In this document: one piece after another, positions 2,791-57,849 of the stretch | How positions within the stretch are numbered: the first letter of the stretch is position 1 | Layout of the letters: every line of letters begins with the position of its first letter | NCBI GenBank assembly: GCA_963698075.1 | Contig: OY969116.1 | Location: 313,010-377,009 of the forward strand | Direction: 5' to 3' | DNA: 64,000 nucleotides | DNA from: an uncultured Candidatus Berkelbacteria bacterium | GTDB lineage: Bacteria; Patescibacteriota; UBA1384; UBA12157; JAENIV01 | The notes under the pieces: generated by a model | Seen by the model: the letters and a program-made list of their open reading frames with translations, nothing else | Told to the model about the DNA's origin: nothing | Database searches by the model: none | Position numbers and translations under genes: made by a program

Positions 2791-3327
2791 ATTATCAAAG
2801 GGTTAACGATTAAAGAATTAAAAACAAACCAAGAAATTATTTCATCCGAGGTCGTTCTCATTGATGAGAACGGCAAATCCCAAGGAGTCACCAGTCTCGA
2901 CCAAGCGTTACTTCTTGCCTATGAAGCTGGTTTGGATCTGGTTGAAGTCAATATCCATTCCCGTCCACCGGTCGTAAAAATCATGGATTACGGCAAATAT
3001 CGTTACGCCCAAGAAAAGCAAGAATCCAAACAAAAATCGAAATCGAAGGGACCTGAGATAAAGGAAGTTCGCCTTAGTCTTAAGATATCTTCTCATGACT
3101 TGGAATTTAAAACCCGTCAAGCACAAAGGTTTTTAAATGAAGGAGATAAAGTTAAGGTAGCTGTCAAACTTATTGGCCGAGAAATGATGTTTCGTGAGAA
3201 AGCTCGAGAGATGATCGAAAATTTTCGTCGAAATACCAATACCGAATACGAAAGTCCGGTGGAAAGACTGGGTAACCAATTTTCTGCCGTCTTGATAGGA
3301 AAAAAATATGAAGCAAAAGACCGTTAA
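2791..3327 (+). CDS. infC: Translation initiation factor IF-3, ATT start codon
   Basis: In-frame translation from ATT 2791 gives IIKGLTIKELKTNQEIISSEVVLIDENGKSQGVTSLDQALLLAYEAGLDLVEVNIHSRPPVVKIMDYGKYRYAQEK..., a full IF-3. A non-AUG (AUU) start is characteristic of infC. SD is 7 nt upstream. The ORF track shows only the internal Met at 2932. Confidence 0.85.
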   Translation: MIKGLTIKELKTNQEIISSEVVLIDENGKSQGVTSLDQALLLAYEAGLDLVEVNIHSRPPVVKIMDYGKYRYAQEKQESKQKSKSKGPEIKEVRLSLKISSHDLEFKTRQAQRFLNEGDKVKVAVKLIGREMMFREKAREMIENFRRNTNTEYESPVERLGNQFSAVLIGKKYEAKDR

Positions 3328-3502
3328 ATCAGCCAAAAAAAGATTAATGACCACGGGAAGTGGGAAAATATTGCGCCGGAGACTCTCGGCGCAACATTTG
3401 GCTATGGGGAAATCAAAAAGGGTCCGTCGAGCGGCCGGCAAAAAGGTTTTAATTTCCTCGGTTGATTCGCGTAAGATTAAAAAATTAGTCCCCAATAGGT
3501 AA
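3308..3502 (+). CDS. rpmI: 50S ribosomal protein L35
   Basis: 64 aa, basic, MKQKTVKSAKKRLMTTGSGKILRRR; position in the infC-rpmI-rplT operon. Confidence 0.85.
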   Translation: MKQKTVKSAKKRLMTTGSGKILRRRLSAQHLAMGKSKRVRRAAGKKVLISSVDSRKIKKLVPNR

Positions 3503-11423: not shown

Positions 11424-12389
11424 GTGGGAGAAAAACCTTCGTTTAGCCCTGAAGAAAATTATGCTCAATTTAAAGAAACTCAAAGAAAAAAACAAGAACT
11501 AGCTTTGAAAAAAGGTCAATTCGATGCTAGTAATTGGCTGGTTAAACTTTTTCACAAAAGATCATTTGCTAAAGAGTACCAACAAATAGCATCTAAGTCG
11601 GCTCAATTAGAAAAAGAAAGTGAAAGGATGATTGCGGATGCAAAATTTCATATGAGGCAAATACAACAAGAAGCACAGATCGAAGAAATTAAAAGAAATC
11701 CCCAAGTATTAAAAACTTTGGAAGATGATTATTCACGCCTAGACGACAGTGAAAGAGACCGTTTTTTTAATCAAAGAATTCCTATTGCGGTAGCCTTTGC
11801 TCGAGGATATGTTTTGCGAGGAAAAGATTTTTCCAGCGCAGGACTCTTACCAAGTGAGAAGACTAATGGTCATATTGAATTCACTAAGCCATGGAGACCG
11901 GAAGATTTTGAATTAGGTAGATATTCCGGTCCAGAAAGACAACCTGACCAGAACGTCGTCAAGTTGGACGAAAGTGGTAAACTTAGTACGTCAGCATTAA
12001 GAAATGCTCTACTCACATTATTTGAGCCAACGCAAGAACTAATTGCAAAAGACGAAGCTGCAGCCTCAATTAGTCCAACACTATGGAACAGAGAGCTTTT
12101 AAAAATTGTAAATTCTTTGTCTGAATTAAATCGATTTTTAACCTATCTTTCACCTCATTTAGTTGAGACTAGTATAAATTTAGAAGAAGTTTACGAAGGC
12201 AGTAGGCATCTACCAAAGGCGGATCTAGGGAGAATGAATGTTTTACCTTCTAGGTCTTATCAGAACGCAGCGCTTGGTGAATTCTATTATGTTAACACAG
12301 TTTCGGGTATATATACGCTTTATCCGCTTCTAATCGAAAAAATTAAAGAATCCCAAGAATCTAATCCTGACGTATTCTCAAACTCTTAG
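11424..12389 (+). CDS. Hypothetical protein (GTG start), coiled-coil N-terminus
   Basis: 321-aa ORF with no motif I can recognise; starts gtgggagaaaaacc. Confidence 0.3.
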   Translation: MGEKPSFSPEENYAQFKETQRKKQELALKKGQFDASNWLVKLFHKRSFAKEYQQIASKSAQLEKESERMIADAKFHMRQIQQEAQIEEIKRNPQVLKTLEDDYSRLDDSERDRFFNQRIPIAVAFARGYVLRGKDFSSAGLLPSEKTNGHIEFTKPWRPEDFELGRYSGPERQPDQNVVKLDESGKLSTSALRNALLTLFEPTQELIAKDEAAASISPTLWNRELLKIVNSLSELNRFLTYLSPHLVETSINLEEVYEGSRHLPKADLGRMNVLPSRSYQNAALGEFYYVNTVSGIYTLYPLLIEKIKESQESNPDVFSNS

Positions 12390-12398
12390 TATGTAACT

Positions 12399-12755
12399 AT
12401 GCAAATAGCTCAAATTGTTCCCAAAGTGAGAACTCAAGATGAGGGTGTTTTTGATTATGCGATACCACCGGCATTATTGCCAATGATAAAAGTTGGTCTC
12501 CTAACCGAAATCCCCTTTCACGGTCGAAAAATTGAAGGGATAATAGTTAAATTAAAATCCAAATCGCATGCGGTACAAATTTCAAATCTCAAATCTATTT
12601 CAAATATTATCGATCCAGTCCCTGCTGTTGATGATACCCATATCAAACTTGCCCAATGGATGACGAATTATTATTTGGAGCCGTTAGGAAAAACTCTCTT
12701 TGAATTTATCGTCCCGCCGGCCAAAAGAACCATTAAAAAACTGGCCCATGAATAA
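12399..12755 (+). CDS. priA: Primosomal protein N' N-terminal (3'-DNA-binding) domain, as a separate ORF
   Basis: 118 aa; stop TAA overlaps ATG of the next ORF (ATGAATAA at 12748-12755); PriA-type N-terminus. Confidence 0.55.
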   Translation: MQIAQIVPKVRTQDEGVFDYAIPPALLPMIKVGLLTEIPFHGRKIEGIIVKLKSKSHAVQISNLKSISNIIDPVPAVDDTHIKLAQWMTNYYLEPLGKTLFEFIVPPAKRTIKKLAHE

Positions 12756-14190
12756 AAAATATTTAATTATTGGCGACTTTCAAACGAGATTAAAGTTCTA
12801 TTTGGCGGCTATCCAAAAAACGCTGACTAAAAATCATTCAATAATTATTTTAGTCCCTGATTTATCGCTGATTTCATATTTTACTCGGTATTTCAAAAAT
12901 CCTTATTCAATTCTGCACGCCGGCCTAAAAAAAACCGAGCGTTGGCTCGAATGGAACCGTATTCGCGAAGGAAAAGTAAAAATTATCATTGGTTCACAAT
13001 CAGCTCTTTTTGCGCCGGTAAAAAATTTGGGCTTAATTATCATTGATCAAGAAGAAAATGAAACCTATAAAAACGACCGATCACCAAGATTCCACGCTGT
13101 CCGGGTGGCCGAAGAATTATCTCGCCTCGCCAGGACCAATTTAGTTCTGGGAAGCATCTTGCCGCGTGTCGAAACCTATCATCAAGCGATTAAAGGCAAA
13201 TATCAAATCCTCAAAAAATCGGCCTTAGCTTCCAAGAATATTACCATTGTCGATATGAATTCGGAAAAATATGTTATTTCAAATACCTTGGAAAAAGAAA
13301 TTGAAAATACATTAATTCAAAAACAAAAAATATTATTAGTTCTCAATCGCAAAGGCGAAGGGACAAAATTTTCTTGTACCGATTGCGGTTGGATTGCTCT
13401 TTGTGAAAAATGCGGCCTGCCCTTGATTCCTCAAAGAGCGGAAAATGTTTGTTATCGCTGTGAGAAATCATCTCCCCCGCCTTTATCCTGTCCAAAATGC
13501 CGCGGCGTTCATCTGAAACCAATGGGTTTGGGCACGGCCCGCTTAAAAAAATTTGTAACCGATTTATTCCCGAAGGCAAAAATCATCCAGGTCGAAAAGG
13601 AAAGCGACGGCCGTCTTGTTAGATACAACTGGGATATTGCCATCACGACAATTTACGGGCTCAAATTCAGCTGGCCGAAAATTGGTTTGGTTGGCATAAT
13701 CGACGCTGACCAAGGTTTGAATTTTCCTGATTTTTCGAGCCCTCAAAAAACTTTCCAAAATTTATATAAATTTTTACGAATAGGCGAGAGGGGAATAGTC
13801 CAAACTCATTTGCCAGAAAACTATTGTTTACGGGCTCTGGCAGGCTTAAACTATGAAAGATTTTTCTTAGATGAAATCACCCAAAGACGAAAATTTGCCT
13901 TTCCGCCGTTTAATCGCCTTGTTCGCCTTTTATTCAAAAATGCTGATGAAGAAAAAGCCAAAAAAGAAACAGTGAGAATATACCAATCACTAATCACCAA
14001 TCACTTTCCACTAACCACTATCTCCAGACCACATCCCGCTTTCATTTCCAAAGAACGCGGGAAATATCGCTATCAGATTGTAATAAAAATCTCAAGCCTA
14101 AGATCTAAGTTCTCAAATCAGTTAAAAGATACTTTACGAACTCTTCCCAAGGGCTGGATTATTGACGTCGATCCCGTGAATTTGCTATGA
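12748..14190 (+). CDS. priA: PriA helicase-core-like protein with degenerate motifs plus Cys4 zinc module
   Basis: LIIIDQEENETYKNDRSPRFHAVRVA aligns to E. coli PriA motif II region (IVIDEEHDSSYKQ..RYHARD) with DEEH changed to DQEE. No Walker A GKT near the start. CTDCGW..CEKCG..CYRCE..CPKCRG zinc-binding region retained. Confidence 0.65.
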   Translation: MNKKYLIIGDFQTRLKFYLAAIQKTLTKNHSIIILVPDLSLISYFTRYFKNPYSILHAGLKKTERWLEWNRIREGKVKIIIGSQSALFAPVKNLGLIIIDQEENETYKNDRSPRFHAVRVAEELSRLARTNLVLGSILPRVETYHQAIKGKYQILKKSALASKNITIVDMNSEKYVISNTLEKEIENTLIQKQKILLVLNRKGEGTKFSCTDCGWIALCEKCGLPLIPQRAENVCYRCEKSSPPPLSCPKCRGVHLKPMGLGTARLKKFVTDLFPKAKIIQVEKESDGRLVRYNWDIAITTIYGLKFSWPKIGLVGIIDADQGLNFPDFSSPQKTFQNLYKFLRIGERGIVQTHLPENYCLRALAGLNYERFFLDEITQRRKFAFPPFNRLVRLLFKNADEEKAKKETVRIYQSLITNHFPLTTISRPHPAFISKERGKYRYQIVIKISSLRSKFSNQLKDTLRTLPKGWIIDVDPVNLL

Positions 14191-14756: not shown

Positions 14757-15926
14757 ATGAGAAAATTAAAGATCGGCATTTTTACCGAATGTTATCATCC
14801 GGTACTCAATGGCGTGGTGGTTTCGATTGAAACTTTTCGTCAAGCCCTTGAAAAACGTGGGTTTGAGTTTTTCATTTTCACCACTCAATGTCCGGGTTAT
14901 CACGAAAAAAATGCCCGCGTCAGGCGATTTAACTCAATGATCCCCTTCCCGTCCAAAGGCGGACGTTATCCGATTGCCTGGCCGCAAATCGCCAGATTGC
15001 AAGCCCCACGCATCGCGCCATCAAATCTTGACCTCATTCACAGCCAGCATCTTTTGGGTATTGGTCATTTAGGTCTAAAAGTTGGCAGAATCCTAAAAAT
15101 TCCGACCATCCTCACTTACCACACCCTCTTGGCTGAATACACCCATTACGCGCCCGGAATAGGGGCAATTTTAAAATGGTATCTAATCCATGCCAGCCGA
15201 GAAATTTCCAACCAATACGATCGAATTGTCACCCCTTCACCATCGATGAAAAGGGTTTTACGTTCCTATGGCGTCAGACGTCCAATTGAACCCATCCCTA
15301 CCGGCGTTAATATTGCTGATTTTCAAAATCATTATTCAAAAGAGGAAATCAGAAAAAAATGGCAAATACCCGAGCACCAAAAAATCCTTCTTTACGTCAG
15401 CCGAATCGCCAAAGAAAAAAATCTTGACTTTCTCTTTGAATCTATTGAACGAATAGCTACCAAGCGTGATGATTTTCATCTTTTGATGGTTGGTGGCGGA
15501 CCAGAGCTTAAATACTATCAAGCAAAAATCCACGAGTGGCATCTGAAACCATTCGTCACTTTTACTGGAATGCAACCCAAAAAAGAAGCTAACCGTTTTT
15601 ATGGCGCGGCGGATATCTTTGTCTTCCCCTCAATCACCGAAACCCAAGGAATTGTGGTCACCGAAGCCATGGCTGCCGGTGTGCCGGCAGTGGCTGTCAA
15701 TCAAATGGGACCAAGCGATATTATCCAAGATGGGATTGACGGCTTTCTTGTGCCCTTGAAAACGGATGAATTTACTGCTAAAATAGAACTTCTGCTTGAC
15801 GATGATAACTTAAGAACCAGGATGGGCCGCGAAGCTCGCCAGAACGCTCGTAAGTTCTCAGTCGAAGCTTGCGCCCAGAAAATGGAAAAAATATATGAAA
15901 GAACCATCGATCATCACCGTTCCTAA
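14757..15926 (+). CDS. GT4 family glycosyltransferase
   Basis: ETQGIVVTEAMAAGVPAVAVN (EX7E-type motif) and GT-B layout; SD aaggatggg 5 nt before ATG 14757. Confidence 0.7.
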   Translation: MRKLKIGIFTECYHPVLNGVVVSIETFRQALEKRGFEFFIFTTQCPGYHEKNARVRRFNSMIPFPSKGGRYPIAWPQIARLQAPRIAPSNLDLIHSQHLLGIGHLGLKVGRILKIPTILTYHTLLAEYTHYAPGIGAILKWYLIHASREISNQYDRIVTPSPSMKRVLRSYGVRRPIEPIPTGVNIADFQNHYSKEEIRKKWQIPEHQKILLYVSRIAKEKNLDFLFESIERIATKRDDFHLLMVGGGPELKYYQAKIHEWHLKPFVTFTGMQPKKEANRFYGAADIFVFPSITETQGIVVTEAMAAGVPAVAVNQMGPSDIIQDGIDGFLVPLKTDEFTAKIELLLDDDNLRTRMGREARQNARKFSVEACAQKMEKIYERTIDHHRS

Positions 15927-17433
15927 TGAGAAACTTTCCGAGGCGACAAGTAAAGTCACCTCTTTTGTGCAAGATTCTAATGAGCTTAAAAAACAAATCC
16001 GAAATATGGTGGCAATCCTGCGCCAAGAAGGCGGTATTGGTCTGGCTGCTAACCAATTGGGTTATGATAATCAAGTCCTAGCTATTGAATTTAAGGAATC
16101 TGATCAAAAGTCTTCTAAAAAGTCCTCGAAAAAAAATGCGGAAAAGACGGAAATCCCTTTGACAATTTTTGTAAATCCCGAAATTGTCGAATACGGGAAA
16201 ACAATTGAATGCTTTGAAGAGGGATGTCTTTCGGTGCCTAAAATCGAACTTGAAGTTGAGCGGCCGACCCAAATTAAAATTAAATATCAAAACGAAAAAG
16301 GGAAAAAAATCAAAGCCGCCCCCAAAGGTTTGCTCGCCCGCATCCTTCAGCATGAAATTGATCATCTGGGTGGCATCATCTTTACCGAACGTGTCAGAGA
16401 GCAGTTTTTTCAAAAATACCCAGAGTTGAAAAAACTAAAAATCGCATTTTTCGGTAGCGGAGAGTTTGGGGCTATCATTTTAGAAGGTTTAATCTTACTT
16501 GGGCTGAATCTCGATATCTATACGGAAAAATCAAAACCGGCCGGCCGCAGCCAAGTAACTCGCGCGACGCCCGTGGCAGAAGTGGCTAAAAAGTTTGGAA
16601 AAGATTATTTTGAAGTAGAAGCGAGCCAAGTATCCTCAAAAGTAAATCGCGGAGGCGAGCCGCACGGACAAGGGCGAGCCGAGCGTTTAGACCCGATTTC
16701 CTCGCAGGGGAAATCGAGGTCGGTACTTTTGACGGATGCTGGCGAGCGACCATTTGATTCTCTCGTCTGTGTTGATTTTGGTCAAAAAATCCCCGAATCG
16801 ATATTAAAACAAGCCAAAATTGCCGCCCTCAATATTCATCCCTCGCTTTTACCAAAATATATCGGCCCGACACCAATTCAAACGGCGATACTTAATGGCG
16901 ATAAGAAAACTGGCGTGTCAATTATTCAAATGACCGATAAAATTGATCAAGGCCCGCTTTATTCCCAAATTGAAACGGAAATTCTCGAAAACGATACCAC
17001 ACCCCTTCTCCACGACCGCCTCGCCACTTTGGGTCTAAAATTATTAATCAAAACCTTACCCAAAATCGTCCGTGGCGAAATCGAAACTGTCAGTCAGGAT
17101 TTATCCAAAACGATAAGGACGCGCAAATTCACTAAAGCCAATGGTGAAATTGACTGGCGAAAATCCCCCAAAAAAATTGATGCCAAAATCCGCGCCTTTT
17201 CCCCTTGGCCGGGTTCGTATACCCGCCTGCCAGCGCCTGAAGCCGCAGGCAATGGCGGGCAGGCTTTCGTCGATAATAAACGCCTAATTATCCACAAAGC
17301 TCATATTAAAAAAGACAAATTAGTTCTCGACATAGTTCAGAGTGAGGGCAAAAAACCAATGAAATTTTCTGAATTTTTACGCGGCTTTCACGGTCCAAAA
17401 CCGGAGTGGTTTAGGAAAGTATTATTGACATAA
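15895..17433 (+). CDS. fmt: Peptide deformylase - methionyl-tRNA formyltransferase fusion (single 512-aa ORF)
   Basis: N-terminal GIGLAANQLG, EGCLSVP, QHEIDHLGG (PDF motifs). C-terminal IAFFGSGEFG ... NIHPSLLPKYIGPTPIQ ... WRK..FSPWPG (Fmt). No stop or start between the two parts. Overlaps the upstream GT4 gene by 32 nt. Confidence 0.75.
   Translation: MKEPSIITVPNEKLSEATSKVTSFVQDSNELKKQIRNMVAILRQEGGIGLAANQLGYDNQVLAIEFKESDQKSSKKSSKKNAEKTEIPLTIFVNPEIVEYGKTIECFEEGCLSVPKIELEVERPTQIKIKYQNEKGKKIKAAPKGLLARILQHEIDHLGGIIFTERVREQFFQKYPELKKLKIAFFGSGEFGAIILEGLILLGLNLDIYTEKSKPAGRSQVTRATPVAEVAKKFGKDYFEVEASQVSSKVNRGGEPHGQGRAERLDPISSQGKSRSVLLTDAGERPFDSLVCVDFGQKIPESILKQAKIAALNIHPSLLPKYIGPTPIQTAILNGDKKTGVSIIQMTDKIDQGPLYSQIETEILENDTTPLLHDRLATLGLKLLIKTLPKIVRGEIETVSQDLSKTIRTRKFTKANGEIDWRKSPKKIDAKIRAFSPWPGSYTRLPAPEAAGNGGQAFVDNKRLIIHKAHIKKDKLVLDIVQSEGKKPMKFSEFLRGFHGPKPEWFRKVLLT
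16621..16749. mobile_element. MITE-like element copy 2, 129 bp inserted in-frame within fmt
   Basis: GCGAGCCAAGTATCCTCAAAAGT ... ACTTTTGACGGATGCTGGCGAGCGA. Adds 43 codons (ASQVSSKVNRGGEPHGQGRAERLDPISSQGKSRSVLLTDAGER) between DYFEVE and PFDSLVCVDFG, the position where E. coli Fmt has a short linker. Confidence 0.5.
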
Positions 17434-17461: not shown

Positions 17462-18019
17462 ATGTTAGCTATCAGACTTCGCCGGCAAGGCAAAAAGGGA
17501 CAACCAAGTTATCGCATTGTCGTGGCCGACCAAAAGGCCCCGATTTTGGGTAAATATATTGAAATGCTCGGCCATTACAATCCTTTCACCAAGGCCATCG
17601 TTTTGGATAACCAAAAAGCCCTGGGCTGGCTCAAAAAAGGTGCCAAACCCTCAAATACAGTGGCGAAATTAATGCAAAAGCAGGGGCTTAAACACAATTC
17701 AATTGTGATCAAAAAATTCCGCGCGGTTTCTAAAGCCGAACTGGAAAAACAAAAAGCCGCGGAAGAAACCAAAAGAGCCGAAGAAGCGGCCAAAAAAGAA
17801 GCTGCCAAGGCGGCCTTCGAAGAACAAGTTGAGAAAGAAAAAGCGGCTGAACCCAAGGAAGATAAACTCCAGGCAATGGCCGAAGAATCAATTAAAGAAG
17901 TGAAAGAAGAAGTCAAACCAGCTGAGAAAAGAAAAAGAAGCGAGCGAAGCGAAGTCCGTCGAAGCCGAAGGCGAAGTGCGGAAAAAGCCGAAAGAAGAAA
18001 AAGGATCTTGATTTATTGA
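17462..18019 (+). CDS. rpsP: 30S ribosomal protein S16 with ~100-aa K/A/E-rich C-terminal extension
   Basis: MLAIRLRRQGKKGQPSYRIVVAD..GHYNP is the S16 core; low-complexity tail. Confidence 0.8.
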   Translation: MLAIRLRRQGKKGQPSYRIVVADQKAPILGKYIEMLGHYNPFTKAIVLDNQKALGWLKKGAKPSNTVAKLMQKQGLKHNSIVIKKFRAVSKAELEKQKAAEETKRAEEAAKKEAAKAAFEEQVEKEKAAEPKEDKLQAMAEESIKEVKEEVKPAEKRKRSERSEVRRSRRRSAEKAERRKRILIY

Positions 18020-22499: not shown

Positions 22500-23642
22500 T
22501 TAGATTAGTTCATCTTGATCCGGACCTTGAATCCCCTTCTTCTTTCGATACCAGTTCCAAATAAGATAGGCAATGATGGTAATTAAAATTCCGGCCCCAA
22601 GAATGATTAAGGCTATTTTAGTCGACTGATTCAAGCCGGCAACTTGAACTTCGGGGCTGGCCGAAGGTATCGGTGAGCCAAATTCTTCTGGAGAGGTAAG
22701 GCCGGCTGACTCGGCGGCTGAAGGCGTGATTTGATTTGGTGTAGGCTCAACTTGGCCAATTATCGGTGGAGTTTCCGGTGATTGACTAACTGAAGTAGGA
22801 GTGGAAGTTGGCGTTGGTGTTGGTTGGGCCGCGGTTGGTGTATTTCCCTCTGGAGGAGGTGTCGACTGACACTCAGTGTTTTCAGAACATTGATTGGTTC
22901 CTTCACCCTCAATTGTATCGCAGGTTTGGCTATTGGAATTGCACACTCTATGGGTTTTTGGTTGGCAATCGGCATTAATCGCACATTCGTTGGTTCCAGC
23001 GCCGCTAATGGTTTCACAGACACGATTGGTAGTATTGCAAACCGTGTGGGTAGATTCTTCGGGGCCGGTGACATCATAAGTGCCGTTGACAACATTGGCC
23101 AAGATGCAGGTACCGTCGACCATCGAAATTATATTCGTATCATTTGTCGCCCCAGGAGTGAAATCAAAATATACCTGTGAAGCCGTTATCGGCTTTAAAG
23201 CTTTGAAGGTTGCGGTCGCAAAAATGCCGCTGCCAGTCCAGCCGGGAGAATTTTGTTCGGTTTTGACCATCCCCGAAAGGGCAATTTTTCCCGGATGGGA
23301 GTCAACTCGTTCGCCCATATAAATATCAAAAATAGTACCATTTTGAATTTGGACCCCGTCCTGATTTGGATCAGCGTCCTGAACTTCTAAAACTCCCGGA
23401 TCATAATTGAGATAAAAAAGATCTACCCCGACCACTGGCTGATTATCGGTATTAACTCTGATATTAACATTAAAAGTTTGGCCTTGAGCTACAATCAGCG
23501 AATTTGGTTGCAGCTCTAACGATGGGCCAGCCGCGGCCTCGGGTTTAATCTTACCTGTTTTCAATAGGTAGATTAAAGCTCCGATCAAAGCGATAACTAA
23601 AATAATGGCTAACCCAATAAAGATAAATTTCTTTTTGGCCAT
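22500..23642 (-). CDS. Membrane-anchored surface protein: cohesin-like domain, two Cys-rich repeats, P/T linker, C-terminal TM
   Basis: N-terminal TM then NVNIRVNTD...QVYFDFTPGATNDTN, a cohesin-like beta-sandwich paralogous to the next gene. VCNTTNRVCETISGAGTNECAINADCQ and VCNSNSQTCDTIEGEGTNQCSENTECQ repeats. Confidence 0.5.
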   Translation of the reverse strand: MAKKKFIFIGLAIILVIALIGALIYLLKTGKIKPEAAAGPSLELQPNSLIVAQGQTFNVNIRVNTDNQPVVGVDLFYLNYDPGVLEVQDADPNQDGVQIQNGTIFDIYMGERVDSHPGKIALSGMVKTEQNSPGWTGSGIFATATFKALKPITASQVYFDFTPGATNDTNIISMVDGTCILANVVNGTYDVTGPEESTHTVCNTTNRVCETISGAGTNECAINADCQPKTHRVCNSNSQTCDTIEGEGTNQCSENTECQSTPPPEGNTPTAAQPTPTPTSTPTSVSQSPETPPIIGQVEPTPNQITPSAAESAGLTSPEEFGSPIPSASPEVQVAGLNQSTKIALIILGAGILITIIAYLIWNWYRKKKGIQGPDQDELI

Positions 23643-23662
23643 CTATGCTCCTTTAATGATAT

Positions 23663-24700
23663 TTATTGATCTTGTAATAACCAGTTTAAACTTAACCAGG
23701 CAAAATCACTAGTGTTGACGATCCCATCCTTATTAATATCAGCCGAAGCCGTATTCTTAAACCAATTAACTAATAAAACTTGATAGTCGGCGGTGTTGAT
23801 AATATTATCGCCGTTGAGTTCTCCAGCTCTTAACTCGCCAAAATCAAGCGTTAAAGGATTGGTTAAAGGTTTATTAATCAGCGCATTGATTAGGTACATT
23901 CCCACTTTAATTCTAAAATCGTAGTTGCCGGCCGGTACACCGGTTAAAGTGAGACTGCCAACACCACTAGCATTGGTCGTCACATCTGTTTTTTCAAAAA
24001 TTTTAGTCGTCGTGCCGGTATTGTAGACTCTAAAGACCGTGCCACTAGTTGAAAAATCACTTCTCCCCTGAAGTTTTAAATTTATGGTGGTTGGTACGTC
24101 AGCGGGGACAAGGCTATAGCTTCCGTTAGTGACTGATAAAAGAATTTCCGCTGGCGGCACGTACGGCGACAAGGTTCCGGCTGACATCACGTTAGTATCG
24201 TTGGTCGCTCCTAAAGTAAAGTTAAAAGTCACCGGACTTGTTGCTGTCCGCAGAACTTTAAAGGTAATCGTGGCCAAAATCGCCGTCCCCGCACCGGTTG
24301 AATAACCTGTTGTACCGGGGTCAATCATGGCCGAATAATATATTTTTCCCAGTGTACTATCAACCGAATTGATCGCCACATTTTTATAAACCGTGGGGGT
24401 GTTGGCTTTAATCTGGACTCCGGCCGCGACGCTATCAGCGTCCTGAACTTCTAAATCTTGGGGATTATAATTTAACATTACATCCGTGCCTGAAGTTAAA
24501 CGCGAATTAGTATTGAGCAAAATATCGACATTGAAATTAGTGCCGATTATTTTGGTCCCGGAGTTTGGCGATAAAGCTAAAGTCGCCACTTCTCCCGCCG
24601 CAAAAGGTTTAATCTTACCGGTCCTGGCCATATAAATAATAAATCCGACTACAATAATCATCAGGACGATCAAAATCGCTAAAATAAATTTTTTCCTCAT
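23663..24700 (-). CDS. Cohesin-like + Ig-like + dockerin-domain surface protein
   Basis: C-terminal GELNGDNIINTADYQVLLVNWFK...ADINKDGIVNTSDFAWLSLNW are two dockerin-type Ca-binding repeats. N-terminal region paralogous to the upstream gene. Confidence 0.6.
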   Translation of the reverse strand: MRKKFILAILIVLMIIVVGFIIYMARTGKIKPFAAGEVATLALSPNSGTKIIGTNFNVDILLNTNSRLTSGTDVMLNYNPQDLEVQDADSVAAGVQIKANTPTVYKNVAINSVDSTLGKIYYSAMIDPGTTGYSTGAGTAILATITFKVLRTATSPVTFNFTLGATNDTNVMSAGTLSPYVPPAEILLSVTNGSYSLVPADVPTTINLKLQGRSDFSTSGTVFRVYNTGTTTKIFEKTDVTTNASGVGSLTLTGVPAGNYDFRIKVGMYLINALINKPLTNPLTLDFGELRAGELNGDNIINTADYQVLLVNWFKNTASADINKDGIVNTSDFAWLSLNWLLQDQ

Positions 24701-24717
24701 TTTTTACCTCCAATTAA

Positions 24718-25402
24718 TTATTGATCTTGTTGTAACCAATTTTGTGACAACCAAGCAAAATCGGCGGTATTAACGATTCCATCTTTATTAATATCGGCGG
24801 TTGCGTTGCTTGTAAACCAATTGACTAAAAGTATTTGATAATCAGCCGTATTAATAATATTGTCATTATTTAAAGCTCCGCCTCTTAATTCGCCGAAAGA
24901 AAAGCGTCATCGGATTCGAAAACGTTTTATTTGTTAAAGCGGTCACGAGATACATATTAACTTTTATTTTAAAATCGTAATTGCTGCCCACATTGAGTCC
25001 GGTGGGCACAACTGTCGCATTGCCTGAAGCATCAGTGGCGACGTTGTTTTGTTCGAAAACGAGCGTTGTTGTCCCAGGGATAAAAACTTTCAAATCGGTG
25101 TTGGTGGTCGAAAAATCAGTTCTTCCTTGAAGTTTAAGATTCAAATTTATAGTCGTGCCTGTCGGGCTGGGTGAAGGTGGGGGGGTCGTAACGGTCGTCG
25201 TCACCGTATTGCTTTGAGCTGATTTGTCCACGCCTCCTTCTTGATAATATATGGTCGCGGTGTTGGTAATATCATTTCCGGCGGCAAAAATGTTGAAAAA
25301 TTTATTCGCAATTAAAATTCCCGCAACAATAATAATTACTAATAGAATTATCCCAAGTTGGATTTTTCTTTTTCGAGGGATTTTTTTAAAAAAACGAATC
25401 AA
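24718..25402 (-). pseudogene. Dockerin-bearing paralog interrupted by a +1 frameshift near 24893-24905
   Basis: ORF 24866-25402 ends ...NPMTLFFRRIKRRSFK*. The -1 frame continues FGELRGGALNNDNIINTADYQILLVNWFTSNATADINKDGIVNTADFAWLSQNWLQQDQ* (dockerin), about 85% DNA identity to the 3' end of 23663-24700. Confidence 0.5.
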
Positions 25403-25478
25403 TACTCTAATATCCCCTCCTATTACTAGGGGATTTATCTAACATTATTGTCTAACTATCAGAAGAATATGTCAAGGT

Positions 25479-26975
25479 TTAATTTATTCTCACCTGAAAT
25501 GTTACCGTTCCCGAACCCCCGGCAGCCAAAGTTCCTAAGTTCCAGATGACTTTGGTACCATCAAAAGTCCCACCACTACTAGCCGAACCAGTAACGTAAG
25601 TCGTGCCATTGGGGATAAAATCTTCAAATCTAACATTGGTGTAAGGATTAGTTGACCCATTAGAATAATTTAACGTATAGGTTAATATTCCCCCTGTTTG
25701 CGCGGTAATCTTATCGACAGACTTGGTAACAACCAATGGCCCTACACAGGGATTGGGATAAGAATTAGGAGATATGGCGTTATTAATCTTGCCTCCGCCT
25801 GCCAAGGCATTCCATAAAGCCGTTTGTTCATCAGTGTCCCAGGTCCAAAAAAGCGCACCCTTAAAACCGAAGTTGCAAATGGCCGCTAAATGACTTCGGA
25901 GCATCGCCGCCGCTTGATCAAGATTAGGGTAGGAATATTTCAAAGCGCCAAACTCACCCACAAGACGGGGCTTATCTTTACCCAGTAGTCCAATCTCGGC
26001 TGAATTTAAATCAAGAGTAAGATCGTAACTCGTTCCAAGTGGATATTGGTGAATATCAATAAGATCGAGGTTCGAATCATACAGCGCTGTTGGCCTAAAA
26101 GGTGATCTAGGATCGGGATGTTCCGAATTAGTCGGTGCCACTCCGTCAAAGCCATCGCGTCCGACAGCTTTAGGAGTAAAAACACTGGTCTCTACTAAAA
26201 CATTTGGGTCCATACTTTTGATACCTTCTGTCATTTGGTTAACCCAATATTTAGCACTATTATCGGCGGCTAGCTGACGGCTAGTCGTGCTTGCCATATC
26301 ATAAGTACCTCCTTCTGCTGGTGTGACAAGTCCACTTGTCATCGAAAATGGCTCGACATTCGACTCAAAACGTCCCTCATTCCAAGGATCCCAAGAAAAT
26401 ATTGTCGAAAGTAAACTTGAATCAGTATTTTTTATATATTCAACCAGGTCAATCATCATCTCTTTATAGGCGACAACATATCTCTGACTCATAAAGATAG
26501 TATTTACCCCTCCGCCCTCGGCGTGAGGAGTCGGCGGTAAAGACCAGACAAAATAATAGTAATTCGAAGGTAACCATTCAGTTGTAATAATCACATAGAT
26601 TCCATGGGCGCGGGCACGCCTCATAAAATCAAGAAGATTGGTCATATAAGCTGGGTCAACTCCTGGCACTGTCAAGGCGCCGCCAAGGACTCTGGTATCG
26701 AGGAAAACACGCGTGATGTTATAGCCATTGTTTTGCATTTGTCCTAATGCCAGCTCTGATCTGGCTGCATCATAGCTTCCCGGATTAAACAAATTATGAT
26801 AGCCGTCGATCGCATCAAGCCGAATATAATTGTTGCCCCTTGGAGTAAAAGTGTTACCGGTCACGGTATCATAAAACTCTCCGTAATGATCAGCACCAAC
26901 TCTCGTGCCGATACGATGAGAAACTAAATCTTCGGCCAAAACTGCCTTAATATGGTATTTGGCCGGAAATATCAA
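25479..26975 (-). CDS. Glycoside hydrolase family 5-like enzyme with C-terminal Ig-like (DUF11-type) domain; apparent TTG start
   Basis: (beta/alpha)8-type motifs NEGR, GEFG. C-terminal TYTLNYSNGS...GSGTVTFQVRI domain shared with 27041-29287. No in-frame ATG between the upstream stop and TTG 26975. Confidence 0.6.
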   Translation of the reverse strand: MIFPAKYHIKAVLAEDLVSHRIGTRVGADHYGEFYDTVTGNTFTPRGNNYIRLDAIDGYHNLFNPGSYDAARSELALGQMQNNGYNITRVFLDTRVLGGALTVPGVDPAYMTNLLDFMRRARAHGIYVIITTEWLPSNYYYFVWSLPPTPHAEGGGVNTIFMSQRYVVAYKEMMIDLVEYIKNTDSSLLSTIFSWDPWNEGRFESNVEPFSMTSGLVTPAEGGTYDMASTTSRQLAADNSAKYWVNQMTEGIKSMDPNVLVETSVFTPKAVGRDGFDGVAPTNSEHPDPRSPFRPTALYDSNLDLIDIHQYPLGTSYDLTLDLNSAEIGLLGKDKPRLVGEFGALKYSYPNLDQAAAMLRSHLAAICNFGFKGALFWTWDTDEQTALWNALAGGGKINNAISPNSYPNPCVGPLVVTKSVDKITAQTGGILTYTLNYSNGSTNPYTNVRFEDFIPNGTTYVTGSASSGGTFDGTKVIWNLGTLAAGGSGTVTFQVRIN

Positions 26976-27040
26976 AAGAGTACCAATTAAATATATTGTC
27001 AGTAAAGATGTAGTAAATTGTTTTGTTTGAATAATTTTAC

Positions 27041-29287
27041 TTATTGTACTCTCACTTGAAATGTCATGTTTCCACTAGCGCCAGCAGCCAGATTTCCCAG
27101 ATTCCAAATCACTTTATTATTGGGCTGATCATAAGTGCCATTGTTGGTGGCCGAACCAATCACATAGGTGGTCCCCGTGGGAATTGGGTCTTCGATGCGC
27201 GTGTTGGTGACTGCTTGACTACCATTAGTATAGGATAAAGTGTAGGTTAAAGTATCGCCTGAAGCCGCTTGGGTTTTGTCAACGGATTTAGAGAGAGTTA
27301 TTGTTGGAGTTGTGCCACCAGGCAGAATAAAAATATGATCCGCGCCACCAGATTCTCCACTTGAATCTTTGGAAAAGACTCGGAAATGGTAGAGTGGAGC
27401 AACCAGCCCAGTCAACTGTAATGAATGATTGGTGGTGGAGGTTGCGTCAGTCTTTGTTTGACCATAATTAGTGGTTTCACCATAATCAACTTTCGAATCT
27501 GAAGCTTTATCAGTTTGCCAGATAATAGTGGCAGTTTTGGCGGCTGAATCAACCGCTGCGATTACATTGGAGATAATTGGCGCTTGATTGGTTGCGCCTA
27601 AAACTATGGTCATCTCTTTGGAATTTGTCATGTTAAGACTTGGTAATGTAAATGTTGGCAGACTCGATTTCGAAACCGTAATGTCGTGAGGTGTATAGCT
27701 GGTTTTGGTTGGCGTTGTACCGCCCAAAACATTGCCTTGTTGAAAATACTCGGTTAGCTCTAATCTCGCCCGGCCACTCGAATCTGTCGTTGCCGTGGGA
27801 CTTTCCGTGCCTCCTCCTTTGGCCACGGCCGAAACAGTTGCTCCGGAGACAGCGTTACCTGCATTATCTTTAACTAAAGTATCCAAATACCACTTAAAAT
27901 ATAAGCTGTATGTTCCACCGCCACTTTGTGAAGTTTGAACAATATCATGAACATCGGCTCCATTGAGAACTTTAGTATCAATAAAAATCTCATTTTTAGC
28001 AGCATAATTCGAGAAACCTTCGCCAATGGTGTGATAATTAATTGGACTATCGCCTTTAATTAGGGTATTGGAGCTAAAGACAAGGCCATCAGCTCCTTGA
28101 CCATCGTAGGTGCTGAATTGAATATTAATGTTGTTGCTGGTAATAGTATTATTATAGATTTTCGAACCGGTATTGGCAGCAACATAGCCGGCAACCGCTA
28201 TCCCATAGGCATATTTGGGTTTGGTTGAAGGAGTGATTATCGCTTTAATATTGTTGTTATAAAATTCATTATTGAGGTTTGATGGGCCATCATAAATCCC
28301 TATACCAGCTGCCTGATCGACTAAACCATCACCAGTTTGCGTCGTAATGTCATTGTCATGAACTTTTAAATTATAAGAATTTGTCCCCGGTGGAATTCGA
28401 CATTTAATTCCCCAGGCAAAATAGCCAGAGCCATATTCTGATTTTGGACCCATCTGAACATTAATTGTATTGGAATAAACCTCAACATCTTGGACTTCAT
28501 TATCAACCAAAATTCCCAAACCATCAGTCGTGTGAATATAATTTTCATAAACTTTGGTACTATGTGGCTTATATAAGGCAACACCGAAACCATTGCTGTC
28601 AACCGCTTTATGGTTAATGTCATTGCGGTAGACGCGGCTGTTAGGAGCAGTGGTATTAAAAGCAATGCCGCCATGGCCACCAATAATTTTATTATCATGA
28701 ATATCATAATTCTGACCTTGTTGGACTTGGAGGGCATAACCATCATAGGCCATCCGGTTGCCGATAGCGGCGACGCTGCTTCGAAAAATATTATCATGAA
28801 TGCTCAGATTGATTGTTCCTCTTTCGTTAACCGAGGTTGAAGAATTACCCCGGACTGAAACATCCAGACCACTGAGTTCAACATTCCTTGGATTAGTGTT
28901 GTAAATATAGATCGCATAGCTGTAAGTTGAAGTGCCTTGTTGAACAATTTTACCGTTTTTAAGCTTAAAGCCGTTATCATCCAAATTGACCCAGTGGCTG
29001 GCATCACCAATGGTCACTCCTGAAAGACCATTTGTGCCTGATGAGGCCGTATCAAAATTAATTGTCTTGCCATTCAAATCCAAAACAATCCCTGTGGCTG
29101 TAATCGTAAAACAGGTCCCGGTCGCTGAAACATCTTGATCTAAAATATAGGTCGTATTGGCTTGGGAAAGCAGTCCGCAAGCGGAAATGTGGACTTCGGC
29201 CGCTTGGGCTTTGGGAATCTTAAAACCCAAAGAAACAGCCAAAAGAACCATAAGCGCGATGATAAAAGTGAAAACATATTTCTTCAT
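27041..29287 (-). CDS. Secreted right-handed parallel beta-helix protein with the same C-terminal Ig-like domain
   Basis: Signal peptide, repeated PbH1-like HDN/NNTI turns, C-terminal TYTLSYTNGS...GNMTFQVRV. Confidence 0.55.
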   Translation of the reverse strand: MKKYVFTFIIALMVLLAVSLGFKIPKAQAAEVHISACGLLSQANTTYILDQDVSATGTCFTITATGIVLDLNGKTINFDTASSGTNGLSGVTIGDASHWVNLDDNGFKLKNGKIVQQGTSTYSYAIYIYNTNPRNVELSGLDVSVRGNSSTSVNERGTINLSIHDNIFRSSVAAIGNRMAYDGYALQVQQGQNYDIHDNKIIGGHGGIAFNTTAPNSRVYRNDINHKAVDSNGFGVALYKPHSTKVYENYIHTTDGLGILVDNEVQDVEVYSNTINVQMGPKSEYGSGYFAWGIKCRIPPGTNSYNLKVHDNDITTQTGDGLVDQAAGIGIYDGPSNLNNEFYNNNIKAIITPSTKPKYAYGIAVAGYVAANTGSKIYNNTITSNNINIQFSTYDGQGADGLVFSSNTLIKGDSPINYHTIGEGFSNYAAKNEIFIDTKVLNGADVHDIVQTSQSGGGTYSLYFKWYLDTLVKDNAGNAVSGATVSAVAKGGGTESPTATTDSSGRARLELTEYFQQGNVLGGTTPTKTSYTPHDITVSKSSLPTFTLPSLNMTNSKEMTIVLGATNQAPIISNVIAAVDSAAKTATIIWQTDKASDSKVDYGETTNYGQTKTDATSTTNHSLQLTGLVAPLYHFRVFSKDSSGESGGADHIFILPGGTTPTITLSKSVDKTQAASGDTLTYTLSYTNGSQAVTNTRIEDPIPTGTTYVIGSATNNGTYDQPNNKVIWNLGNLAAGASGNMTFQVRVQ

Positions 29288-38062: not shown

Positions 38063-38365
38063 GGGGCTATCAAGCTTCGACGGGAAACAATTTGACAATT
38101 TCAAGTCGAGAAGGCTACGAACCTCGCAAAATCCGTGGCAAACACTAAACGCTAACAAGCAATTAGTACCTGCCTTAGCCTAATAGGCTAATGCACGTCG
38201 TTCCATTTGTTGGTTGACCGAATGGAAACGGCGCCAACCGTCAACCTCTGGGGATGGAAGATCGTCCTGGTACTATCCTTGAAACAAACGAGGGCAAATG
38301 CTAAGCTTGTCAACGATTATCAAAGAGTTTTTCGGACGGGAGTGCGATTCTCCCTAGCTCCACCA
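38063..38365 (+). ncRNA. ssrA: tmRNA (ssrA), short form with encoded CCA
   Basis: 5' GGGGCUAUCAAGCUUCGACGGG and 3' GGACGGGAGUGCGAUUCUCCCUAGCUCCACCA match tmRNA tRNA-like-domain consensus. Internal frame gct aac aag caa tta gta cct gcc tta gcc TAA TAG (tag ANKQLVPALA). Confidence 0.8.
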
Positions 38366-38826: not shown

Positions 38827-39492
38827 ATGAAAATTTACATTCAACGTATCTCCCGTAGGTTAAGAAGTCTAAGGGAAGAGAAAGATCTCACTCAAGAAGA
38901 GCTTGCCGATCGACTGGGAATATCGAGACAATCGATAATCTCGGTTGAAAAAGGCAAATGTTTACCTTCTCTTCCCTTAGCCCTACGTATTTCGGAAATT
39001 TTTGAAAAATCTTTAGAAGACTTGTTTTTTGGTAATCAAAAAGAGAAAGGAGGTGATAATATGCCACGTTTCCTTATGCCCTGGTCGCCTTTCCGCAGAT
39101 TGGATAATTTTTTCGAGGATGAGGATTCATCGGCTTCCCCGCGATGGCGAGGATTCCAGTTCCCGATGGTTAACGTCAAACAATCTGACAAAGATATCGT
39201 TGTAACGGCTGACATTCCGGGGATCAAAGAAGAGGATGTCAATATTGAGGTTGGCGATACTTTTGTTGATATCTCTGGTGAGCGAAAAGAGGAAACCAAG
39301 AAAGAAGACGAAGGTTATTTCCACCAGGAAGTACGCTACGGTTCCTTTGCCCGACGCATTCCACTCCCGACTGAAGTCAAAGCAGATAAAGCCGACGCCA
39401 CAATCAAAGATGGACAACTGCGAATCACAATTCCCAAGCTCGAACCCGAAAAACCCAAAGTGACCAAAATCAAGGTCAAAAAAGCAAGCTAA
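38827..39492 (+). CDS. XRE-family HTH domain fused in-frame to an Hsp20/alpha-crystallin domain; internal RBS+ATG at 39061
   Basis: LTQEELADRLGISRQSIISVEKG (HTH_XRE) then MPRFLMPWSPFRRLD...VNVKQSDKDIVVTADIPGIKEEDVNIEV...GQLRITIPK (sHSP). AAGGAGGTGA 4 nt before the internal ATG. Upstream TTGACA-17-TACAAT. Confidence 0.6.
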   Translation: MKIYIQRISRRLRSLREEKDLTQEELADRLGISRQSIISVEKGKCLPSLPLALRISEIFEKSLEDLFFGNQKEKGGDNMPRFLMPWSPFRRLDNFFEDEDSSASPRWRGFQFPMVNVKQSDKDIVVTADIPGIKEEDVNIEVGDTFVDISGERKEETKKEDEGYFHQEVRYGSFARRIPLPTEVKADKADATIKDGQLRITIPKLEPEKPKVTKIKVKKAS

Positions 39493-40335: not shown

Positions 40336-41403
40336 CTATTCTTCGAACTCGATTTCGCGGACCGCCTTTCCCGAGGCCTTGACGATACCAAGACCATGCG
40401 TTTCCCCATAGCCACCTTTCTTGACGACGACGGTGTGGATGCTTGAACCAGCAATGAGCTTAGCGCAACTCAGACAGGGTATGGAGTTGACGTAAATGGT
40501 GGTGCCGGCGACCGGGATCCCGACATTGGCCGCCGTCAGAAACGCCATTTCTTCAGCATGAATCGCTCGACAAACCTCAAGCATTTGTCCCGACGGGATG
40601 CCTCTTTCATCCCTTTCGCAGCCCACGTCGGCACAAAGTTCCGAACCGGGATATTGGCCATTGAAACCTGTCGCAATCACCCTCAGCTCCTCGGGGATGG
40701 CAATCACGCAGCCGTATCGCCGGGTCTGACCCACGAGATATCCCTGTTCGTCTCGAGGGAAACTACCATCAGCAGCACGCTGACAACCCCTAACGCAATT
40801 AGAAAGCCGAGAGGTGGCCACGACAATCCCCATGAAGTAGCGATCCCGGCGAGCAATCTCTCTTTGGTATTCTTCAGTACCGAGACCAACGCCTGTCAAA
40901 CCCGTCGAACCAAATCCACCTATCCCCCTCATTGTTGGTGGTAACTCCTCTGCTGTCGCCACCTCAAGCAGATCAGGAATTTCCACCTGTGAAAAGATAA
41001 GCTGAGCAACACGCATCTCAGGCTCGATGGTAAACGGCTGACGGCCACGGTTAACCAAGAGACACCCCGCCTCGCCGCGGAAGTCCGGATCAATCGTTCC
41101 AGGACTGTTTCCCAGTTCAATTCGGTGCTTGGTTGCCAAACCGCTTCGCGGTCGCACTTCAACCTGGTGACCCCAGGGAAGAGCCATCGCAAAGCCAACA
41201 CCAATCAAAATGGCATCGTCAGGAAGAATTGTTACTGGTAGTTCCTCTCTCACTTCTCGTGTGTTTGGATCAAGAACTCGAGAGGCAAAGACATCATAGC
41301 CGATAGCCCCGGGGCTTGCCCTCACTGGCAACCGAGCATCAGGACGAACCTTCCAAACTCGAATACTTCCCAGCACTTCCGGCATCTTCCTTCCTCCACT
41401 CAA
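40336..41403 (-). CDS. Bifunctional dUTPase - dCMP deaminase fusion, GC-rich
   Basis: N-terminal GAIGYDV ... RSGLA ... GTIDPDFRGE ... GFGSTG (dUTPase). C-terminal HAEEMAF ... PCLSCAKL (cytidine/dCMP deaminase zinc motifs). GC far above background. Confidence 0.7.
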   Translation of the reverse strand: MSGGRKMPEVLGSIRVWKVRPDARLPVRASPGAIGYDVFASRVLDPNTREVREELPVTILPDDAILIGVGFAMALPWGHQVEVRPRSGLATKHRIELGNSPGTIDPDFRGEAGCLLVNRGRQPFTIEPEMRVAQLIFSQVEIPDLLEVATAEELPPTMRGIGGFGSTGLTGVGLGTEEYQREIARRDRYFMGIVVATSRLSNCVRGCQRAADGSFPRDEQGYLVGQTRRYGCVIAIPEELRVIATGFNGQYPGSELCADVGCERDERGIPSGQMLEVCRAIHAEEMAFLTAANVGIPVAGTTIYVNSIPCLSCAKLIAGSSIHTVVVKKGGYGETHGLGIVKASGKAVREIEFEE

Positions 41404-49913: not shown

Positions 49914-49989
49914 TGGTGCCCTCGGCAGGATTTGAACCCGCGACCTCTGGCACCGGAGGCCAGCGTTCTGTCCACTGAACTACGAGGGC
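49914..49989 (-). tRNA. tRNA-Arg (anticodon CCG) with CCA
   Basis: rc gccctcgtagttcagtggacagaacg-ctggc-ctccggt-gccag-aggtc-gcggg-ttcaaat-cctgc-cgagggc-a-cca. Confidence 0.85.
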
Positions 49990-49990
49990 C

Positions 49991-50066
49991 TGGCGCCCTC
50001 GGGCCGAGTCGAACGGCCAACCTCTCCCTTAGGACGGGATCGCTCTATCCATTGAGCTACGAGGGC
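49991..50066 (-). tRNA. tRNA-Arg (anticodon CCT) with CCA
   Basis: rc gccctcgtagctcaatggatagagcg-atccc-gtcctaa-gggag-...-ggccg-ttcgact-cggcc-cgagggc-g-cca; 1-nt spacer to the previous tRNA. Confidence 0.8.
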
Positions 50067-50171
50067 TTTAGATAGATTTTATCATTTTTGTAAGATATAA
50101 TAAACTTGTTTAAAGAATCACTCCTTAGGGAGAAGTTTTTTTCAAAGAGTAAATTTGAAAATAAAGTTACT

Positions 50172-50246
50172 CGGGGACTGGCCTAATGGTAAGGCGCAGC
50201 GTTCGGGACGCTGAGATTCCGGGTTCGACTCCCGGGTCCCCGACCA
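50172..50246 (+). tRNA. tRNA-Pro (anticodon CGG) with CCA
   Basis: cggggac-tg-gcct-aatggta-aggc-g-cagcg-ttcggga-cgctg-agat-tccgg-gttcgac-cccgg-gtccccg-a-cca. Confidence 0.85.
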
Positions 50247-56363: not shown

Positions 56364-56441
56364 TGGTAGCGCCGACGGGATTCGAACCCGTGATCTCCAG
56401 GATGAAAACCTGGTATCCTAAACCAACTAGACGACGGCGCC
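56364..56441 (-). tRNA. tRNA-Glu (anticodon TTC) with CCA
   Basis: rc ggcgccg...ccagg-ttttcat-cctgg...acggg-ttcgaat-cccgt-cggcgct-a-cca. Its 5' 25 nt are duplicated at 56516-56540. Confidence 0.85.
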
Positions 56442-56861
56442 ATAATGCTTATTTGTCAACTAACGATATATTTCTGGAGCTTTGTTCCAGTGGATGAAAA
56501 CCGCCGTGTACGGCCCTAAACCAACTAGACGACGGCGCCATATTACCATTTTATATGACAATAAGCCTGAAGTAAAGGAGAAACGGTTTTGCTGCAACAA
56601 AAATAACCCCTCGCATAAAGCTGTGGGTTACACCCTTACTTCCTTGTCGCTTCTGGCTTGCCACCCGAAGCTCCAAAGGAACGAAAGGTGGAGAGACATT
56701 CGGGTCTAGAACCTTTTGGCTCTTTTTTATTAATGAAGCAATTTCCTTTTTTCATAAAGGGGTTTAATTTCTTCAGTTAATTGGTTAGTCACTGCATTCC
56801 CTTCATTCTTTTCTCTGTGGTCTCGATCTACAGCCGTGTATGAGATTTGCCACTGTATTCG

Positions 56862-57422: not shown

Positions 57423-57498
57423 AACTTGAATCCCTTTGTTCTTGTATCTTAGAGTCTTTTTTGCTTCTCCTACCTTTTACGCGGTCCCAAGCTTCTAA

Positions 57499-57540
57499 TT
57501 GGAGGGCTCGGTGGGATTCGAAGGTCGGTGTCCAACCGAC
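57499..57540 (-). repeat. Duplicated 3' end (24 nt) of tRNA-Lys fused to GGTCGGTGTCCAACCGAC motif
   Basis: ttggagggctcggtgggattcgaa is identical to 57685-57708 of tRNA-Lys, followed by the 18-nt hairpin motif instead of the T-stem. Confidence 0.5.
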
Positions 57541-57760: not shown

Positions 57761-57761
57761 A

Positions 57762-57834: not shown

Positions 57835-57849
57835 AAAATGCTCTACTCA

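Follow-up and report, generated by a model that had tools for sequence, protein, structure and literature searches.

PriA is considered a helicase common to nearly all bacteria. In the 64,000 nucleotides (nt) analysed here (the window: positions 313,010 to 377,009 of contig OY969116.1, assembly GCA_963698075.1, from an uncultured Candidatus Berkelbacteria bacterium), the priA gene is divided into two overlapping open reading frames (ORFs), and the larger one does not carry the motifs of an ATP motor. Is this a single gene that was misread or is in decay, or does it encode a PriA that is made in two pieces and works without a motor? The answer favoured by the analysis, with a probability of about 0.72, is that the product is a motor-dead PriA pseudohelicase made as two subunits, which would serve as an ATP-independent adaptor for fork recognition and for which we infer association of the chains, DNA binding and recruitment of the replicative helicase.

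Both ORFs lie on the forward strand. ORF1 (12399..12755) encodes 118 amino acids (aa) and ORF2 (12748..14190) encodes 480 aa. The coordinates, the length of the first product and the overlap of its TAA with the ATG of the second had been given in an earlier reading of the letters alone (the original prediction), and all three stood when the ORFs were read again. ORF1 is a stand-alone PriA 3′-DNA-binding domain (3′BD) by its match to PF17764 (PriA_3primeBD, E=9e-20) and by its alignment with residues 15-99 of 2d7e, the crystal domain of Escherichia coli PriA 1-105. It keeps the FDY motif that binds 3′ ends, in which D19 is the counterpart of E. coli D17, the residue that contacts the leading-strand 3′ end (PMC5175346). 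ORF2 is the PriA core, as shown by its score against TIGR00595 priA (322.8 bits, with a cutoff of 230.35), by its matches to the solved PriA structures of the PDB (E=3e-60), and by the AlphaFold2 and Foldseek results described below. It consists of two RecA-like lobes with degenerate motifs, a cysteine-rich region and the PriA C-terminal domain (CTD; 13906..14175, residues 387-476, PF18074 PriA_C, E=2.3e-14). Against the best full-length NCBIfam equivalog, ORF2 scored 337 bits, compared with a cutoff of 813 bits, and the NF0040xx models were not reached.

The relatives that carry a name belong to Candidatus Berkelbacteria or to the "Patescibacteria group", and in every one fetched the gene order was kept: radical-SAM, LigB/Memo, AMMECR1, priA, GT4 glycosyltransferase, def-fmt fusion and rpsP. 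Therefore, the Pfam, NCBIfam and PDB matches together with the conserved synteny identify the locus as the orthologous priA next to def/fmt. In the public gene call (P0001, 496 aa), ORF2 is given a TTG start at 12700, so that 56 nt are shared with ORF1. The 16 aa added in this way (12700-12747) are not conserved, and the relatives begin at the ATG equivalent to 12748; judged by this comparison, the TTG at 12700 is a wrong start. Comparable out-of-frame N-terminal extensions were seen in P0005 and P0016.

The state of the motor motifs was read from an alignment with the canonical PriAs P0116-P0120 of the candidate phyla radiation (CPR), which carry GVTGSGKT, DEEH and QVAGRAGR. None of the three sequences that mark the helicase (GxxxxGKT in motif I, DEEH in motif II and QxxGRxGR in motif VI) was found in ORF2. 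The motif I (Walker A) remnant, at 12772..12801 on the forward strand, reads GDFQTRLKFY instead of GVTGSGKTEIY; the site has neither the glycine-rich loop nor GK[TS], and the pattern GxxxxGK[TS] is absent from the whole of ORF2. The TIGR00595 match likewise opens at profile position 13, so that the Walker A region is skipped. In motif Ia, where canonical proteins have LVPE(I/V)(S/A)L plus four residues (TQQT, VPQN or IPQN), four residues are deleted. Motif II (Walker B) is reduced to DQEE from DEEH (13045..13056, forward strand), motif III reads GSILP for GSATP, and motif V reads TTIYGLK for GTQM..KG. In motif VI the remnant KFLRIGERG (13768..13794, forward strand) stands for QVAGRAGRGxxxG, with six residues deleted and the arginine fingers of GRxGR gone. 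In the aromatic-rich loop beside motif II, K328, R334 and Y335 (as Phe) are retained and W333 is replaced by an invariant Pro. The original prediction had pointed to DQEE in place of DEEH and to a missing Walker A; the alignments, that with TIGR00595 included, bore out both, revealed no intact Walker A and extended the loss to motifs Ia, III, V and VI.

Since motifs I, II and VI are missing, ORF2 is, on the evidence of alignment and model, a PriA by descent and fold and not as an active helicase, and its RecA-like lobes are predicted neither to bind nor to hydrolyse ATP. That the core might still be an NTPase or a translocase working through non-canonical residues is suggested by the invariance of DQEE (D100, Q101, E102 and E103 do not vary in the close clade, A1), by the conservation of NRKGEG and IDADQGLNFPDF, and by the complete preservation of the two-lobe fold. 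Against such an activity, the P-loop has kept neither its glycines nor its Lys-Thr/Ser, the catalytic Glu of motif II is a Gln and both arginines of motif VI are lost, to which the deletions in motifs Ia and VI and the changes in motifs III and V have to be added. In addition, one substitution, K230R, already kills the E. coli protein, and Deinococcus PriA has the same Walker A Lys-to-Arg change and a poor match to Walker B. An active core is therefore improbable.

The loss of the motor is not a peculiarity of this genome. P0001-P0115 (~38-80% identity) are all without a Walker A and almost without exception have DQEE, the degenerate motifs I, Ia, II, III, V and VI being common to all ~113 members of the clade. 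When genome contigs were scanned with the clade alignment, only 7 of 34 loci belonged to the clade and the others were canonical PriAs from Omnitrophota and further phyla; the scan told little about the split. Beyond the clade, 1.84 billion representatives were searched exhaustively with HMMER. Motifs I, II and VI were jointly missing in 54 of the 147 nearest representatives at 50% identity, and motifs I and VI in nine more; as this sample is biased to relatives of a degenerate query, the fraction is no estimate for PriAs at large. The motor-less examples with a name were Parcubacteria or Patescibacteria. A rough neighbour-joining (NJ) tree separated three large motor-dead groups (23, 18 and 11 representatives) and several small ones, in an arrangement made unreliable by long-branch effects. 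Motor-less CPR PriAs often have no winged-helix (WH) domain, and a few members of the Berkelbacteria clade are also without the cysteine-rich region. As a separate observation, many other PriAs of Patescibacteria or Parcubacteria (P0143-P0281; 32-40% identical, 600-720 aa) were found without motifs I, II and VI, with remnants that differ widely, such as LHYQSKNDKETVI or LYDRISNRIKDY.

The first explanation to be weighed for the split is an error, that is, a frameshift introduced by sequencing or assembly, or else a recent pseudogenising indel in a single priA. Most relatives in the clade are indeed fused proteins of ~600 aa, and an A-rich run lies beside the junction. Nevertheless, an independent Logan assembly (ERR10755944) was 100% identical over 3,616 bp, junction included. 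Seven further lineages, at 58-80% identity and from different samples, have the same split, in each case as a 3′BD ORF of 112-118 aa whose stop overlaps the conserved ATG of the core, and the database holds 22 clusters of stand-alone 3′BD homologues (112-144 aa). The fused relatives have no Met at the position where the core starts, and they carry a linker of 15-30 aa that is missing from the split forms. Where dS could be computed, dN/dS was 0.07-0.18 for both ORFs; most pairs are at or near saturation in dS, which makes these ratios approximate, and by this measure both ORFs are under purifying selection. Accordingly, an error or a decaying gene is hardly credible. Sequencing error in particular was rejected because of the identical assembly and the recurrence of the split at eight loci, the window included; these loci also contradict any one-base correction to a single frame. 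The junction had been described in the original prediction as one of the coupling type and not a random frameshift, with the advice that relatives be surveyed for it; the seven lineages, the identical assembly and the purifying selection uphold that description.

How the second chain is made can be approached from the junction itself. The 3′ end of ORF1 reads CAT GAA TAA, with the TAA at 12753-12755. The ATG of ORF2 (12748-12750) lies 5 nt upstream of this TAA and sets ORF2 in the +1 frame relative to ORF1, so the two ORFs share the 8 nt of ATGAATAA (12748..12755, forward strand). Among the eight split loci, the overlap was of the type ATGnnTAA in seven and ATGA in one (L038), in which the core is consequently in the -1 frame rather than +1; the junctions include cccATGaaTAA, cgcATGcaTAA, atcATGagTAA, gacATGaaTAA, cctATGagTAA and cttATGAac. 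A Shine-Dalgarno-like motif was not present before the ATG of ORF2 in any of the eight, compared with ~20 of 54 genes of the window that have one.

A programmed ribosomal frameshift at the junction, yielding one fused PriA polypeptide, would agree with the +1 frame of ORF2, with the missing Shine-Dalgarno motif and with the fused form being the ancestral state. However, it is the ATG and the stop that are conserved across the junctions and not any slippery or shifty sequence, and one mechanism cannot fit both the -1 relation of L038 and the +1 relation of the other loci. Programmed frameshifting was rejected on these two grounds as very unlikely. In turn, the conserved ATG with its overlapping stop, the absence of a slippery sequence and the variation of frame between lineages make termination-reinitiation likely, and the locus has the features of a coupled pair: an overlapping stop and start, no ribosome-binding site belonging to the second ORF, and conserved adjacency. 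ORF2 is thus likely to be translated by termination-reinitiation coupling. In such a process, the ribosome that ends at the TAA of ORF1 would re-initiate at the ATG 5 nt upstream, and this tandem translation would deliver both chains in roughly equal amounts.

The history of the split was followed in an NJ tree of split and fused forms (100 bootstraps), in which split forms appeared at three or more positions among the fused ones and the fused P0007 appeared inside a split clade. The split P0040 was sister to the fused P0036 (97%) within a fused clade (100%), the split P0033 grouped with the fused P0031 (73%, within a clade of 96%), and P0007 was sister to the split P0005 (100%). A single origin of the split was rejected on the placements of P0040, P0033 and P0007. 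As reconstructed here, the gene has switched between split and fused states at least three times, and each switch may be either a fission or a re-fusion. The divergence of the 3′BD relative to the core was similar in both states (ratio of 0.77 for split pairs and 0.82 for fused pairs), which argues that there was no relaxation after fission. Taking assembly, recurrence and substitution rates together, the split is old, maintained by selection and recurrent.

The sister forms P0005 (split) and P0007 (fused) differ by an indel of ~70 nt in the linker. A G8 homopolymer was noticed in the linker of the fused P0007 (L042, ~3320-3430), together with aaaaaatatctt duplicated in tandem to give KKYLKKYL, and a similar duplication (KRYLIKKYLI) was noticed in P0010. 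These duplications hint that some of the fused forms may be secondary re-fusions.

Apart from the motor, the core is well preserved. Its cysteine-rich region (13375..13500, forward strand) contains four CxxC pairs (C210/213, C219/222, C235/238 and C248/251), which amount to eight cysteines and two predicted zinc sites, all of them intact in the alignment. C210, C219, C222, C235, C238, C248 and C251 are invariant, C213 is conserved at 90% or more, and the four pairs are kept in 100 of 113 clade members; in the Pfam scan, PF18319 did not match ORF2. The original prediction of an intact Cys4 zinc module was right about its being intact, but the module is not a Cys4, being the two-zinc region of PriA. 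In six PriAs of the clade (P0077, P0078, P0088, P0094, P0110 and P0112) the whole cysteine-rich region is lost, without any CxxC, and in six others (P0067, P0095, P0096, P0102, P0103 and P0107) two of the four pairs are left. Reductive evolution has gone further in these proteins, reaching a domain on which E. coli PriA depends as essential.

The WH domain, in contrast to canonical PriA, is absent between the 3′BD and the core. Positions 108-286 of the NF004066 profile, which cover the winged helix and Walker A, were not matched by ORF2, the fused relatives have in this place only the linker, and no domain is seen there in the concatenated model described below. Some canonical CPR PriAs, too, have a short WH or none (P0116 and P0118).

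AlphaFold2 modelled ORF2 from 32 homologues with a pLDDT of 84.8 and a pTM of 0.83. A strand at residues 4-8 is followed after two residues by a helix at 11-27, so that no P-loop is formed. In a Foldseek search the top matches of this model were all PriA (8fak, 6dcr and 4nl4), with a query TM-score (TMq) of 0.80. A second model, in which ORF1 was artificially joined to ORF2 and the alignment was built from fused relatives, reached a pLDDT of 87.2 and a pTM of 0.86, disorder being confined to residues 106-118 (the tail of ORF1 at the junction). It superposed on full PriA structures, E. coli PriA without its WH (6dcr) among them, with a TMq of 0.79-0.81 over all 598 residues, which means that the 3′BD was modelled in its canonical position.

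From these elements, the following mode of action can be proposed. The two chains would join non-covalently, with the 3′BD packed on the core as in the solved PriA structures; a review describes tight packing of the 3′BD on the helicase domain of PriA (PMC5778457). The 3′BD would read the leading-strand 3′ end, while the dead RecA lobes, the cysteine-rich region and the CTD would hold the DNA and offer a landing pad to the replicative helicase or its loader. The pair would thereby form a structure-specific platform that recognises forks and D-loops and recruits the replicative helicase with its loader, and no ATP would be spent on unwinding the lagging strand. The original prediction had also suggested a PriA that binds DNA, is no helicase and comes as two polypeptides, and this is now the reading best supported by the fold, the cysteine-rich region, the CTD, the 3′-end-binding Asp and the docking in the model. 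To that prediction, the present analysis adds the loss of the motor throughout the clade and widely in other Patescibacteria, the repeated splitting or its reversal, and the absence of the WH.

An alternative use of the same parts is that the two products have been functionally separated, the core serving for instance as a scaffold in another process and ORF1 as a small 3′-end-binding protein acting by itself. The 3′BD of E. coli is stable by itself and binds 3′ ends alone (PDB 2d7e series), and the erosion of the cysteine region in clade members hints at a relaxed or changed function of the core. On the other hand, the genes are adjacent and overlapping in every split lineage, the 3′BD docks canonically in the model, and fused and split forms have interconverted at least three times while evolving at equal rates, as expected if the parts cooperate and their covalent linkage is neutral. 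Functional separation is therefore unlikely.

Several points weigh against a two-chain adaptor without a motor. The invariance of DQEE and of its flanking residues shows, at the level of the alignment, that the site is under selection of some kind. ORF2 may have a non-canonical nucleotide site, and a weaker second nucleotide site has been proposed for E. coli PriA. The concatenated model is biased toward docking by the joining into a single chain and by the alignment of fused relatives. Finally, in E. coli the PriA-PriC pathway depends on the helicase activity of PriA, as do forks with a duplex lagging strand; a dead PriA accordingly implies a narrower range of substrates or the help of another helicase.

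The rest of the window provides the setting of the locus. Among its ~50 largest ORFs, no replication gene besides priA was found (dnaB, ssb, dciA, dnaG and recA). Between AMMECR1 and the gene for the 3′BD lies a 321-aa ORF (11424-12389, forward strand) without a Pfam match, which is also present in the independent assembly L046. As AMMECR1 directly abuts priA in all the split and fused relatives fetched that have AMMECR1, this ORF is a lineage-specific insertion. Downstream, a 512-aa fusion of peptide deformylase and methionyl-tRNA formyltransferase (15895-17433, forward strand; Pep_deformylase, Formyl_trans_N and Formyl_trans_C) overlaps the upstream GT4 gene by ~30 nt and is kept in all the Berkelbacteria relatives fetched (387-492 aa). 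It is followed by ribosomal protein S16 (17462-18019, forward strand; 185 aa), in which the S16 domain occupies residues 8-64 and a C-terminal extension covers ~120 aa.

Further along, a cluster of large secreted or surface-type proteins (22500-29287, reverse strand) consists of two proteins of 345 and 380 aa that carry cohesin domains and two of 419 and 748 aa that carry DUF11 and Big_1 repeats. The region from 31 to 41 kb is rich in nucleotide metabolism, with ThyX, SHMT, thymidylate kinase, a second dCMP deaminase and uridine kinase, and a 349-aa fusion of dUTPase/dCTP-deaminase-like and dCMP-deaminase domains is encoded at 40336-41385 (reverse strand). In a single 221-aa ORF at 38827-39492 (forward strand), residues 12-66 form an XRE-type HTH_3 domain and residues 117-217 an Hsp20/alpha-crystallin domain, an unusual fusion. 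A tmRNA (tag ANKQLVPALA) and 12 tRNA genes were located at 38063-38365 (forward strand), 49914-50246 and 56364-63318, most of the tRNA genes being clustered in the last 15 kb of the window.

The ~113 Berkelbacteria clusters and the 54 motor-less proteins among the 147 nearest representatives, some of them from other Patescibacteria, much enlarge the set of natural motor-dead PriAs, and one sub-lineage goes beyond this in encoding the protein as two chains. A broader proposal would be that, in a large part of the CPR, the PriA used to restart replication is no more than an adaptor that binds DNA in a structure-specific manner, the 3′BD and the core being two modules of one machine whose covalent connection was repeatedly broken or restored; this is given an even chance. 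If it is true, a major bacterial radiation can do without the motor of PriA in nature, and reduced genomes either restart only those forks that need no unwinding or pass the unwinding to another protein. These proteins also bear on the question, raised in a 2017 review, of what role PriA has alone in bacteria without PriB, PriC and DnaT, and of how relevant its helicase is outside the laboratory. The split forms are natural constructs with which to ask if the 3′BD and the core assemble on DNA, and their repeated fission and fusion marks the inter-domain linker as functionally dispensable. For annotation, genes of this kind are named "primosomal protein N′" or "replication restart helicase" without a flag for the lost motor.

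Compared with known systems, the Berkelbacteria protein shares with the canonical PriAs of E. coli and K. pneumoniae (4nl4, 6dgd and 8fak) the 3′BD, the RecA-like lobes, the two-zinc cysteine-rich region, the CTD and the overall fold, as well as the def/fmt neighbour and the conserved Asp that binds 3′ ends. It differs from them in its degenerate ATP motifs, in having no WH and in being made as two polypeptides. A literature search revealed no paper tying PriA to Berkelbacteria, Patescibacteria or CPR in the sense of motor loss or splitting.

The closest natural parallel is the pseudohelicase of Deinococcus. D. radiodurans PriA has no ATPase or helicase activity and retains binding to single-stranded DNA, forks and DnaB (PMC4504706, Lopper et al. 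2015), and both that paper and the 2017 review present Deinococcus as the sole exception to the conservation of PriA motifs. Both proteins have naturally lost the Walker A and B consensus while conserving the remainder of PriA. In contrast, Deinococcus-Thermus PriA is a single chain that keeps a recognisable P-loop (Lys to Arg), whereas in the Berkelbacteria protein the P-loop is gone, motifs Ia, III, V and VI and the WH are missing as well, and the gene is split. As the phyla and the motif remnants are different, the motor was presumably lost independently.

In E. coli, the laboratory alleles reproduce each change separately. The ATPase-dead priA300 (K230R) is near wild type, PriA-PriB restart working without the ATPase, and a PriA split within the WH, by an insertion at residue 154 and a new start codon at 157, retains almost full function as long as both segments are supplied (PMC5778457). 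That split allele was cut inside the WH, whereas the Berkelbacteria gene is cut in the linker that replaces it. The E. coli PriA without a WH (6dcr) is among the structures closest to the concatenated model (TMq of 0.79, target TM-score of 0.74) and is like it in having no WH, but it is an engineered single chain in which the helicase motifs are retained. Both priA300 and the split allele are engineered or selected laboratory mutants with one change each, whereas the Berkelbacteria locus combines both changes naturally, in a form that, by its sequence record, is old and under selection.

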